This document shows positions 28,863 to 36,689 of a DNA stretch of 64,000 nt, piece after piece (the stretch's first letter is position 1; each line of letters opens with the position of its first letter). The stretch is from Candidatus Babeliales bacterium (lineage in GTDB: Bacteria; Babelota; Babeliae; Babelales; Vermiphilaceae). Below the pieces are notes generated by a model that was given only the letters and a program-made list of their open reading frames with translations, was not told the DNA's origin and did no database searches. The stretch is taken from assembly GCA_963743635.1 (NCBI GenBank), contig CAVUQO010000003.1, positions 192,001 to 256,000 of the forward strand. The letters are read 5' to 3'. Position numbers and translations under genes: made by a program.

Positions 28863-29552
28863 CTAGCTGTTATTATTGTTGTTGCTTTCGGAAGAAATCC
28901 TTTTCTTGCACCAATTCATTTTGTGATCAGTAAGGTAATATTTATCGGAGTATTTCTTTCCGCACTGCGGGCATGCGAATTTTTTATCAAGGTAACGCGT
29001 GTGAGATGCATGAGTGATATGGCGATGAAAAGACCTTTTTATTTCATACTTTTGATTGCATCCTTCAATGGGTGCCCAATAGCTTTTGCCATTAACGATA
29101 GTTGGTTCGGCTCGATTTTCCTTGATTTGGCCTTGCATTGCTAGAGTTGCCGCGATTGGAGTAATGAGGGGGTGCGTGGCTGGCGCAACTGCAGGGTATT
29201 TTGTTGTAGGGGTATTATGCACAGCGTTATCTTGGTTCAAAAGATAGCGAGGTATGAGTGAATCTATGTCTACTGGAGGCCAAGATTTTTTTACAATTAC
29301 CTCCTTTAGCGTTCCGTCGTCCGATGATATGAAGTGTATGTAATCATTCCGATAAGTTACGCACGGATTATTCAACTCGCGGTGATCCTCAATCTGTTTA
29401 TATTGTTTATATGTGTTGTCGTTTTCCTCTATCTTCTCATTTTCAAAAAAATCTTCAGACAAGAATCGTTGGTAAAAATCATCATCATTTTGCATAGCAT
29501 AACCAGTTGCGCAATTGAGTAAGATTGTGATTGCTGCGATTAAGTATTTCAC
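28863..29552 (-). CDS. Exported protein with C-terminal C2H2-type zinc fingers
   Basis: Signal ending TGYA|MQN (probable GTG start 29552); FACPQCGKKYSDKYYLTDHKMNWC plus a degenerate finger; poly-N tail. Confidence 0.75.
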   Translation of the reverse strand: MKYLIAAITILLNCATGYAMQNDDDFYQRFLSEDFFENEKIEENDNTYKQYKQIEDHRELNNPCVTYRNDYIHFISSDDGTLKEVIVKKSWPPVDIDSLIPRYLLNQDNAVHNTPTTKYPAVAPATHPLITPIAATLAMQGQIKENRAEPTIVNGKSYWAPIEGCNQKYEIKRSFHRHITHASHTRYLDKKFACPQCGKKYSDKYYLTDHKMNWCKKRISSESNNNNNS

Positions 29553-29674
29553 GCATGGCCCTTTAGAATACGTATTTTGAGACATACATTATCTCATAAG
29601 AGAATGTAACATCTATCGATTTATTGCAATAAAGGATCTAAGATTTCGTAATCTTGATGATCGCATTAGGTACT

Positions 29675-30187
29675 CTATTCTTGCAGTAGGTGCTTTTTAA
29701 CTACGTGGTTACGGAGCGCTTGAAACTCACTAAATAAAATCGAGCATGTATTGCATCTAGATGTTCCGGATGGGGGCATCTTGTGGCAATTTAGAAGATG
29801 GGGACGGACATTATTTCTGTGAGTAGTCTTGCAAGTAGGGCATTCTGTAAACGTTGCTGGAATTGTAATAGGAGCTGGTTGCTGATTTTCTGCAACAGTT
29901 TTTACAGATGTCGTATTTGATTTGTTTTGGACTTCAAGGCATTGTTTTTTGGCATCTCCAGCCATAGCTGCTATTGCGGGAGCAGTCTCTAAAGATGTTT
30001 TCTCATTTACGCTATCGTTTTTTGCGCTTTGCTGGGCGGTTCCGTGTGCTGCTTGAGTTATTGCGCGAGAAAGAAGAAATAAAGGGTTTTCCTCTTCCGC
30101 AGGTCTTTTGCCGTTTGCATTCATAGCAAAACTTGCTTGTGAGGTTGATAGAGCGATACATAAAAATATAAGAGATAGATTTTTCAT
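29675..30187 (-). CDS. Exported protein with two C2H2-like zinc fingers
   Basis: Signal ending ASFA|MNA, GKRP basic patch, CPTC..H..H and CNTCSILF..LRNHVVKKH. Confidence 0.75.
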   Translation of the reverse strand: MKNLSLIFLCIALSTSQASFAMNANGKRPAEEENPLFLLSRAITQAAHGTAQQSAKNDSVNEKTSLETAPAIAAMAGDAKKQCLEVQNKSNTTSVKTVAENQQPAPITIPATFTECPTCKTTHRNNVRPHLLNCHKMPPSGTSRCNTCSILFSEFQALRNHVVKKHLLQE

Positions 30188-35571: not shown

Positions 35572-36399
35572 ATAATTACCCCCTTTTGGCTAGATATTAT
35601 TTCTATCTGTCTATATATAAGTATAGCTATTTTTGGAAGCTTTGCAACCCCTCTTGTTGCCCTGAAATAGCCTGTTTTGCTGTAAATTATTTGCTTTTTG
35701 GGGCATCTTAATACACTAGGTGGGGATTCAGATAGAAAAATATGGGGGCGCAAATAGAGCAGCTCTGTGGCGTTAGGAGTAGGGGGGTTTTATCCAGTGC
35801 AGGTTCAGCCCTGGTTAGTGTACCTATTGGAGGGGGGGTGCGAGTGTAGCTAGTTGGGGTTAGCTATAGCAGTAGTGGGTTCTGTGGCCATAGGTCTGTA
35901 TTTACACGTTTTTTCATGCGTGTTGCGCGCATCTGATCGAGGAAAAAGTTCACCACAACCAGCGAAATTGCATGTATACGGCTTCTCACCGGTGTGTTTT
36001 CTGATGTGGGTTGCTAGATTGCTTTCTCGTGCGAATTTACGGTGACAGAATGAACATTCGGCCATCGGCTCGCCAGTATGGATTTTTTTGTGCAACTCAA
36101 GATCTGAGTTGCGTGCAAATGATTTGCCACAATTTTGATGATCGCATACGTAAGGTTTTTCGTCAGCATGAGTTCTTATATGACTCCTCAAATGGCCTAC
36201 CTGCCTAAAGCTTTTGCCACAACCTTCCTCTTCGCAGAGAAATGGGCGCTCGCCGCTATGAATGAGTTTGTGCTGTTTTAATCCGGTAGAAGAACTGAAT
36301 GATTTGCCGCATCCGGGTTCATCGCAGACATATTTCTTGATAACCACAGGAATCGTAGTGGCGGCAGGAGCAGCTTGATGGGTTGTTTTTGGCGCTTGG
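35283..36399. repeat. ~1.1-kb direct repeat, copy B
   Basis: See 32042-33157; offset about 3241-3242 bp. Confidence 0.9.
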
Positions 36400-36689
36400 A
36401 TTGATAATAAGATTGTTGCAACGTCAAGTTCGTGACGATGGCCTTCATCTTTTTTAGATGATGAAGGTGGCGATTCGTCATCATCGCCATCATCATCGTC
36501 GTCATGATCTTCCTTACCTTGGATCATTAGTTTCATTTTTTTTGGAAGAGGAGGATTGATGTCGTGACCCTCTTCATGATCTATCGATAAAGACCCATTA
36601 GTCATCATGCATTTTAATTCCCGGGATGACATTGAAAAGCTCGTTTGAGTCCAGACCAGCAACAGTATGATAATTATCAGATGGCGCAT
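35850..36689 (-). CDS. Exported 5-finger C2H2 zinc-finger protein
   Basis: Signal ending TSFS|MSS, PPLPKKMK NLS-like motif, acidic tract, five Kruppel-type fingers. Confidence 0.9.
   Translation of the reverse strand: MRHLIIIILLLVWTQTSFSMSSRELKCMMTNGSLSIDHEEGHDINPPLPKKMKLMIQGKEDHDDDDDGDDDESPPSSSKKDEGHRHELDVATILLSIQAPKTTHQAAPAATTIPVVIKKYVCDEPGCGKSFSSSTGLKQHKLIHSGERPFLCEEEGCGKSFRQVGHLRSHIRTHADEKPYVCDHQNCGKSFARNSDLELHKKIHTGEPMAECSFCHRKFARESNLATHIRKHTGEKPYTCNFAGCGELFPRSDARNTHEKTCKYRPMATEPTTAIANPN

Follow-up and report, generated by a model that had tools for sequence, protein, structure and literature searches.

Why would a bacterium carry, side by side, five genes whose products each join an export signal to zinc fingers of the kind found in eukaryotic transcription factors? 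The question is raised by a gene cluster (Z1 to Z5) at positions 28863-36689 of a 64,000-nucleotide stretch of contig CAVUQO010000003.1, from the Candidatus Babeliales assembly GCA_963743635.1; this whole stretch is called the window throughout. On balance we lean towards regarding the cluster as a tandemly amplified family of Sec-exported, eukaryote-type poly-C2H2 proteins that would serve a Dependentiae (Babeliales) parasite of protists as host-directed, nucleic-acid-binding effectors.

The five genes and their fingers

The open reading frame (ORF) listing of the 64-kb window placed five ORFs in the cluster, all on the minus strand and arranged head to tail. They are given here with their lengths in amino acids (aa), together with an out-of-frame continuation of Z3 recovered by three-frame translation.

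28863-29585, minus strand: Z1, 240 aa; signal-peptide-like N-terminus (aa 1-30), non-finger region, degenerate finger, C2HC finger (aa 205-226)
29675-30187, minus strand: Z2, 170 aa; signal-peptide-like N-terminus (aa 1-21), C2H2 fingers at aa 116-135 (atypical) and aa 145-166 (classical)
30391-30543, minus strand: out-of-frame Z3 continuation; ninth intact finger, degenerate tenth, stop
30471-32330, minus strand: Z3, 619 aa; signal peptide common to Z4, units with 2 + 2 + 4 fingers and poly-Asn/poly-Asp tracts between them
32608-35571, minus strand: Z4, 987 aa; Z3-like signal peptide and N-terminal region, units with 2 + 4 + 4 + 1 fingers, then a five-finger block
35850-36689, minus strand: Z5, 279 aa; its own signal-peptide-like N-terminus (aa 1-19), disordered acidic region including PKKMK, five Krüppel-type fingers (aa 122-262)

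Fingers were counted as non-overlapping matches to the pattern C-x2-5-C-x10-13-H-x3-5-[HC], which returned 1, 2, 8, 16 and 5 in-frame fingers for Z1 to Z5 respectively. The upstream second finger of Z1 is degenerate, having lost its first Cys, and the remaining one is of the C2HC type. The ninth and the degenerate tenth fingers of Z3 can be read only after a shift of frame with respect to the paralogous copy, caused either by gene decay or by an assembly indel; being out of frame, they account for the "8-10" fingers assigned to Z3 in an earlier note on this DNA. With Z1 taken as one finger plus a degenerate one, the co-oriented genes with about 2, 2, 8-10, 16 and 5 fingers described in that note agree with the ORFs, with the pattern counts and with shuffled controls. 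A strict six-frame scan of the whole 64 kb returned 36 matches, 32 of them on the minus strand of the cluster, one on its plus strand and three outside; in 200 shuffled versions of the cluster, matches averaged 0.12 and never exceeded 2.

The C..H spacing is of 12 residues in 31 of the 32 in-frame matches (finger 1 of Z2 has 10), the C-x4-C spacing occurs in 26 of the 32, and 20 of the 27 inter-finger gaps measure exactly 7 residues. The repeats are 28-30 residues long, giving a 90-nucleotide (nt) period in the DNA, and all four zinc ligands are kept in all 31 in-frame fingers. The exact TGEKP linker is found twice, the other linkers being variants such as SGERP, TREKP, ADEKP and RDDKP; the longer forms HTGEKPY, HSGERPF and HTREKPF pointed out previously are present, as are the basic patches PKKMK, GQKRS, GSKRT and GKRP and the acidic and poly-Asn tracts.

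Profile searches with Pfam assigned zf-C2H2 to Z3 (2.7e-25, 87.8 bits), Z4 (7.7e-56, 183.9 bits) and Z5 (3.8e-24, 84.1 bits), well above the curated PF00096 cut-off of 25.2 bits. Z1 stayed under it (6.8e-4, 20.4 bits), while Z2 gave sub-threshold matches only (0.024) and none to PF00096; the zf-C2H2 scan suggested as a check in the earlier note thus bore out the three large proteins and left the two small ones below threshold. Among the Pfam matches of the five proteins there was no TAL repeat family, no KRAB, SCAN, BTB or other eukaryotic partner domain, and, at E <= 0.01, no ROS_MUCR, tandem classical fingers being found instead.

Structure prediction was in agreement with the profiles. The AlphaFold2 model of Z5, built on a 40-row alignment, showed a helix at residues 2-18, a low-confidence stretch at 20-118 and five ββα fingers with a per-residue confidence (pLDDT) of 90-98. 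In unit C of Z4 (aa 431-669) all four fingers were modelled as ββα at pLDDT 80-92, and the 94-residue spacer that precedes them stayed below 50. A Foldseek search of the PDB gave 143 matches at E <= 0.001, headed by the DNA complexes of Aart, PRDM9, ZNF410, ZFP568, WT1, ZBTB24 and CTCF, with TM-scores to the target of 0.7-0.8 for ZNF410, Aart and PRDM9. By phmmer, 90 PDB sequences matched at E <= 1e-10, including ZNF568 (1.7e-60) and, at 1e-29 to 1e-31, TFIIIA, YY1 and WT1. The fingers, previously called eukaryote-type, are therefore canonical eukaryote-type arrays as modelled here by Pfam, AlphaFold, Foldseek and PDB matching, and they are predicted to bind zinc and nucleic acid.

Duplication history and bacterial context

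Z3 and Z4 are concatenations of one repeated unit, in the order MDQD.SKNAN..GITQERLTGSKRT.DELAVV..AATNAFNAAASNLYHHA, a poly-Asn/poly-Asp tract, GDEAANGVPSTQSAVHANKKRFPC, one to four fingers and HPNQAIANLVEPQDQNITSPDDDDD. The first residues of each unit repeat those that follow the signal peptide at the mature N-terminus, and the genes therefore grew as the entire mature coding unit was duplicated in frame. The longest of the (AAT)n and (GAT)n tracts coding for the Asn and Asp runs has 30 units. A larger event is marked by a direct repeat of about 1.2 kb, to which no strand is assigned:

31942-33157: copy 1; 5' end of Z3, 277-nt intergenic stretch, 3' five-finger block of Z4
35183-36399: copy 2; 5' end of Z4, intergenic stretch, 3' five-finger block of Z5

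The two copies are 96-99.6% identical and lie 3241-3242 nt apart, and their intergenic parts agree at 99.6% over 277 columns, with one mismatch. Since each copy spans a five-finger 3' end, an intergenic stretch and a signal-peptide 5' end, the repeat is the footprint of a 3.24-kb tandem duplication with breakpoints in two genes. Judged from the sequence, Z4 is a chimera produced by this duplication, its 5' half being of Z3 type and its 3' half of Z5 type, and its five-finger tail is 96% identical to Z5 at the protein level; Z3, Z4 and Z5 all arose via unit duplication. The word "system" used previously for the cluster is too strong for what is a paralogous family produced by unit and segmental duplication.

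Tandem duplication is common across this stretch, beyond the zinc-finger cluster. Two adjacent paralogue pairs, 15221-17752 / 17935-19470 and 62077-63210 / 63230-64000, share near-identical N-termini (for example ...AQAPLIRQDPEMLVK... and ...SILFIAVFLGSLNL..ADEAMDSL), and the adjacent pair 48899-49291 / 49332-49730 consists of two MazG/PRA-PH-like genes.

The cluster genes resemble their surroundings in composition. Their GC content is 0.40-0.44, as in the rest of the window, GC at third codon positions (GC3) is 0.30-0.40, compared with 0.38 +/- 0.045 for 34 neighbouring genes, and their relative synonymous codon usage (RSCU) correlates with that of the neighbours at 0.42-0.58, for a background range of 0.26-0.79. 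The genes are intronless, lie on a contig of 818,594 bp and have bacterial genes on both flanks, the nearest of which are the following:

27139-28859 (ORFs 27139-27819 and 27780-28859), plus strand: GspE/PilB-family secretion ATPase; Pfam MshEN and T2SSE; 3 nt from Z1
36779-37324, plus strand: minor (pseudo)pilin-like ORF with ...GFMMIEVLVALALV...; divergent, 89 nt from Z5; weak matches
37354-40098, plus strand: TamB-like outer-membrane biogenesis gene; Pfam TamB 3.5e-19; context only

The two pieces of the ATPase scored 86.0 + 545.4 bits with the NCBIfam model of GspE and 90.4 + 523.2 bits with that of PilB. The pilin-like ORF matched ComGD (1.2e-5) and GspH (8.3e-4), both below the NCBIfam cut-offs, and Pfam N_methyl at E 0.23; its motif was read by eye against what we take to be the consensus. 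The window also encodes FtsA, FtsZ, SecA, HisRS, CdsA, BamD, TamB, MgtE and other bacterial proteins. SecA is 72-74% identical to its best named relatives, from Candidatus Babeliales and Candidatus Dependentiae, and 87-92% identical to nine metagenomic proteins, so closer relatives exist; on this basis the organism is assigned to Dependentiae/Babeliales. Members of this group are obligate intracellular parasites of protists. The only RNA genes found in the window were tRNA-Lys(UUU) at 43678-43753 and tRNA-Glu(UUC) at 43892-43969. Scans for promoters and terminators remained at chance, returning 26 promoter-like sites where 21.6 would be expected and 12 terminator-like sites where 8.9 would be.

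Faulty assembly, or the joining of contaminant eukaryotic DNA to bacterial sequence, would also account for the cluster, and the region is indeed repetitive, with frameshifts elsewhere that reveal an imperfect assembly. The GC content, the codon use, the start sites, the lack of introns and the bacterial context make such a contaminating or chimeric join very unlikely: gspE lies 3 nt from Z1 and the pilin-like gene 89 nt past Z5, and the signal peptides are of bacterial type and share the junction motif of their neighbours. We regard this explanation as highly improbable; the chimeric join with eukaryotic DNA that had been mentioned as a danger in the earlier note was not seen in composition, flanks or the Shine-Dalgarno sequences of Z3 and Z4. 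As for the frameshifts, ftsZ, like gspE, is read as two overlapping ORFs owing to a single frameshift, at 3888-4826 and 4715-5218. A broken ftsZ in a genome that is otherwise intact makes residual assembly indels likelier than pseudogenes for both genes, and the frameshift of Z3 may be an error too.

Export, destination and function

A Sec-type N-terminus, claimed previously for each gene, was recognised in all five proteins by hydropathy and by eye, with a signal-peptide-like n-h-c architecture made of a basic n-region, a hydrophobic core of 10-16 residues and small residues at -3/-1. The maximum 10-residue hydropathy within the first 25 residues was 2.6-3.65 in all five, a heuristic judgement, and the c-regions end in ...YA, ...FA, ...FA, ...FA or ...FS. 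In every gene the first start codon lies 1-6 codons past an in-frame stop. A clear Shine-Dalgarno sequence, GGGGG, is placed 7-11 nt upstream of the ATG of Z3 and Z4; the other genes have only weaker purine-rich stretches, such as AGGA about 10 nt upstream of the ATG in Z2.

These start sites bear on the possibility that the proteins are not exported, translation beginning instead at the Met after the hydrophobic segment to give intrabacterial DNA-binding regulators comparable to Ros/MucR. A Met does follow the predicted cleavage site directly in all five proteins, and the source gene call of Z5 (P0001) starts at Met28, downstream of the signal; that of Z1 (P0241) includes it. However, Shine-Dalgarno-like sequences stand at the upstream ATG and none was seen upstream of the internal Met of Z2, Z3 and Z4, a full n-h-c architecture precedes that Met, and no protein matched the Ros/MucR family in Pfam. 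In addition, an [AS]-M-[polar] junction follows the signal segment in 12 of the 32 signal-like ORFs of the window, including TamB, where about 0.02 would be expected per ORF. Examples of these 32 ORFs are:

931, 8852, 13311, 45730, 37354 and Z1-Z5: signal-like ORFs whose N-termini were compared for an [Ala/Ser]-Met-[polar or acidic] junction

Because so many ORFs share it, the Met junction is better read as a trait of the exported proteins of this organism than as the sign of a wrong start, and we consider an intrabacterial role improbable. The junction itself could be a lineage-specific cleavage-site habit, or could reflect signal peptides added before older start codons.

By a crude hydropathy cut, 27 of the 53 ORFs of the window have a signal-like N-terminus. 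This is in line with Chromulinavorax destructans, for which published work (PMC6561590) gives signal peptides on 44% of coding sequences and on 78% of 98 ankyrin-repeat proteins, read there as secreted effectors. A signal peptide joined to a eukaryote-like domain is therefore a published pattern for the phylum, and the best-supported reading of the cluster is that it extends this pattern to a DNA-reading domain. Signal-like N-termini also occur in the window on three GNAT acetyltransferases, a beta-carbonic anhydrase and a sulfotransferase-like protein (44353-44883, 47361-47951, 47969-48523, 50244-50927 and 56917-57756), which are possible secreted host-acting enzymes.

In the mechanism that we propose, a cleavable N-terminal signal peptide would carry the proteins across the inner membrane by Sec, and they would leave the cell through the conserved type II secretion system (T2SS) of the phylum or in outer-membrane vesicles. 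Having arrived in the host cytosol, they would act as nucleomodulin-type effectors, the finger arrays binding host nucleic acid, most probably nuclear DNA, and the acidic poly-Asp/Asn tracts serving as spacers or activation-like regions. Signal cleavage, the crossing of the outer and host membranes, nuclear import, DNA binding and an effect on transcription are steps that we infer. To our knowledge, T2SS substrates share no defining sequence signal, and what ties the cluster to this route is its adjacency to the frameshifted gspE/pilB and to the pilin-like gene, together with the published conservation of the system in the phylum. In seven TM6 genomes the core genes are reported to include components of type II secretion, two gspD copies among them (PMC4776705).

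Besides the gene call of Z5, several observations weigh against a host-directed role. The export signal was judged by hydropathy and eye, the Cys/His zinc sites would need to survive passage through the periplasm, and the adjacent gspE/pilB is split by a frameshift in this assembly. Residues 11-14 of Z3 and Z4 read ILSC, by eye a possible lipobox-like motif, and a lipoprotein fate is possible. With regard to nuclear import, the classical nuclear localisation signal (NLS) pattern K[KR]x[KR] was found in one of the five proteins and the bipartite pattern in none, and the mature Z3 and Z4 are net acidic (-18 and -34). Of the basic patches to which attention had been drawn, only PKKMK of Z5 fits the classical pattern, and as candidate nuclear signals they are weak. 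An orthologue of Z3-Z5 in another Dependentiae was not found, in searches that were uninformative; with the shared first 172 residues of Z3 as the query, a word-index search returned nothing, not even Z3 or Z4 themselves, probably because poly-Asn/Asp words swamped it. The 3' frameshift of Z3 and the substitution rates discussed below count on the same side.

The NLS survey and the putative lipobox would suit proteins that are exported yet do not act on host nuclear DNA. Such proteins would either find their binding partners in the cytosol or vacuole, among host RNA, host proteins and the nucleic acid of organelles or viruses, or be retained on the bacterial surface. Four of the five proteins lack a classical NLS, C2H2 fingers also bind RNA, with WT1-RNA and TFIIIA among the structural matches, and the Atlas look-alikes of Z2 include zf-met/jaz clusters of the dsRNA-binding type, a lead only. 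The 7-residue linkers and the recognition helices, which are of RSD type or rich in Q/R/D/N, are on the other hand typical of DNA-wrapping arrays, and the best structural matches are DNA complexes. We grant this non-nuclear destination a minor but appreciable chance.

The substitution rates raise the question of whether the genes are functional at all. The ratio of non-synonymous to synonymous substitution (dN/dS) was 0.45 for the N-termini of Z3 and Z4, 0.93 for units B and C of Z4, and 2.75 for the Z4 tail and Z5 (10 non-synonymous and 1 synonymous change), the counts being small. In our own reading of these comparisons, changes at helix positions -1 to +6 numbered 3/23 and 3/8, near expectation. 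Paralogue values near or above 1 fit relaxed constraint as well as diversification, and the small counts and the absence of enrichment at helix positions make the two indistinguishable; diversifying selection at the base-contacting helix positions was accordingly dropped as an explanation.

Such values, at about 0.9 or more between units, would be expected if the cluster were made of decaying remnants of horizontally acquired eukaryotic genes, duplicated by slippage or recombination and with little or no function. The frameshifted tail of Z3, the degenerate first finger of Z1, the long slippage-prone (AAT)n and (GAT)n tracts and the lack of Z3-Z5 orthologues in limited, partly uninformative searches agree with that scenario. 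Nevertheless, this highly repetitive DNA still carries open frames of 619, 987 and 279 codons, 31 of 31 in-frame fingers keep their zinc ligands, codon use is ameliorated, each of the five genes retains its start context and signal peptide, and a homologue of Z1 with the same architecture exists elsewhere; the frameshift of Z3 may itself be an error, those of ftsZ and gspE being comparable. Decay thus seems doubtful to us, and the host-directed effector family remains our preferred reading.

Relatives and comparison with known systems

A search with Z5 returned 206 proteins at E <= 0.001 among 1990 candidates. In the best 120 of these 206, only the window's own protein exceeded 48% identity, and the other named ones were mostly eukaryotic zinc-finger proteins; the best identities, 26-48%, fell on a mixture of metazoan, fungal and metagenomic proteins. 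No eukaryotic donor lineage could be named for the fingers from identities of this order over so mixed a set. In our proposal the finger modules came ultimately from a eukaryote and were later reshuffled by the in-frame unit duplications and the 3.24-kb tandem duplication.

An exhaustive phmmer search with Z1 found the protein itself at full length, one true homologue, P0242 (37%, E 5.2e-16), and 137 finger-only matches. P0242 (241 aa) has the same architecture, with a poly-Asn tract and both fingers intact, including the one that is degenerate in Z1. Its sequence opens ...GYAMHEGDD, as if the gene call had cut off the signal peptide. Among language-model look-alikes in the ESM Atlas, Z5 retrieved generic zf-C2H2 clusters only, a lead and not evidence. 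For Z2 the look-alikes came from archaea and giant viruses (Nucleocytoviricota) and were small C2H2 proteins scoring 0.90-0.91, their recognition value lying under the reliability mark; they offer a weak hint that amoeba-associated genomes exchange genes.

Two peptide patterns were also used for a genome scan, which is no census of bacterial C2H2 arrays and did not return the window's own genome: 44 stretches matched and five were confirmed, all five in one metagenome-assembled genome (MAG), Kistimonas sp. bin40. This Endozoicomonadaceae MAG (MPMQ01) resembles the present case in being host-associated and in having tandem genes with 8-16-finger arrays of C-x4-C/TGEKPF type, with 41-44% identity to those of the window; the genes, of about 350-680 codons, lie on MPMQ01 contigs 4, 6 and 44 (L001-L005). 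For bacteria the earlier note named only the one atypical finger of Ros/MucR proteins; the many 8-16-finger proteins of this MAG show that bacterial fingers go beyond that. In contrast to the cluster, the Kistimonas genome is of high GC and its proteins have no hydrophobic Sec signal, bearing instead a conserved N-terminus, MDxFxITxSHRKxEP..., and a conserved acidic-hydrophobic C-terminal tail, ...DLEVPSLLLTDDDKAFWQALI. This layout is reminiscent of an effector composed of secretion signal, DNA-binding array and acidic tail. Eukaryotic proteins are at least as close to the window's fingers as the Kistimonas arrays, so the Kistimonas family was probably acquired independently, which suggests that the strategy has arisen more than once. 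Zinc-finger enrichment in Kistimonas is noted in a 2025 review (PMC12491435).

The fingers themselves are closest to those of eukaryotic Krüppel-type transcription factors (TFIIIA, ZNF76/143, ZXD, YY1, ZNF410, ZFP568, PRDM9), with which they share the C-x2-4-C-x12-H-x3-4-H pattern, the ββα fold and 7-residue TGEKP-like linkers; the frequent C-x4-C "xxGC" knuckle is shared with TFIIIA/ZNF76-type fingers. The cluster proteins differ from these factors in being encoded in a bacterial genome with bacterial Sec-type signals and in lacking a KRAB, SCAN or BTB partner domain. Within bacteria, Ros/MucR proteins also have a Cys2His2-type zinc site and bind DNA, as is predicted for the cluster. They are cytoplasmic, and their one finger is atypical and sits within a larger globular domain.

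The closest experimentally tested analogues are, in our comparison, the MoHTR effectors of Magnaporthe oryzae. In MoHTR1 and MoHTR2 a C2H2 finger is joined to a signal peptide; both are secreted, enter rice nuclei and reprogram transcription (PMC12488382), and MoHTR3 is mentioned in an abstract as a further secreted zinc-finger nuclear effector of the same fungus. Their format is nearest to that of Z1 and Z2 (170-240 aa, one or two fingers). They differ in being eukaryotic, using eukaryotic secretion and being small (MoHTR2 has 110 aa and one finger domain), whereas Z3-Z5 are long bacterial arrays, and no homology is claimed. Inside the phylum, the ankyrin-repeat proteins of Chromulinavorax and Babela likewise pair a Sec signal with a eukaryote-type repeat domain, although theirs is a protein-interaction repeat and that of the cluster a nucleic-acid-binding zinc finger. 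A search of the open-access literature found no published description of zinc-finger genes in Dependentiae and, in main texts, no characterised bacterial poly-C2H2 effector. In a nucleomodulin review (PMC7819608) the term "C2H2" is absent and none of the three "zinc finger" passages concerns a bacterial C2H2-array effector.

Bacterial effectors acting in the host nucleus, and secreted eukaryotic-like repeat proteins in Dependentiae, are already known. If the proteins of the cluster do reach the host nucleus, they would constitute, next to the transcription activator-like (TAL) effectors, a second class of sequence-reading bacterial effectors with an evolutionary origin of its own, and would give a handle on how uncultured Dependentiae reprogram their protist hosts. 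Being built from the best-understood DNA-recognition module, they would then have predictable and testable targets.

The parallel with the TAL effectors of Xanthomonas and Ralstonia, drawn in the earlier note, holds as an analogy and not as membership, since no TAL repeat is present. Both have acidic regions, repeat shuffling and a modular tandem-repeat region that binds DNA, as predicted here. The repeat fold differs, however, TAL repeats being of 33-35 residues with repeat-variable diresidues and the cluster repeats being zinc fingers of 28-30 residues; TAL effectors travel by type III secretion, compared with predicted Sec export, and their NLSs and activation domain are experimentally defined. 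As a tentative extension, eukaryotic poly-zinc-finger arrays may have been made over, in Dependentiae and separately in Kistimonas, into modular "designer transcription factors" that can be delivered to a host. Sec and type II secretion would export them, they would enter the protist nucleus, and blocks of two to five fingers would bind specific host promoters; re-sorting of these blocks by unit duplication and gene fusion, as in Z4, would re-target host genes. Such proteins would be the zinc-finger counterpart of the TAL effectors.

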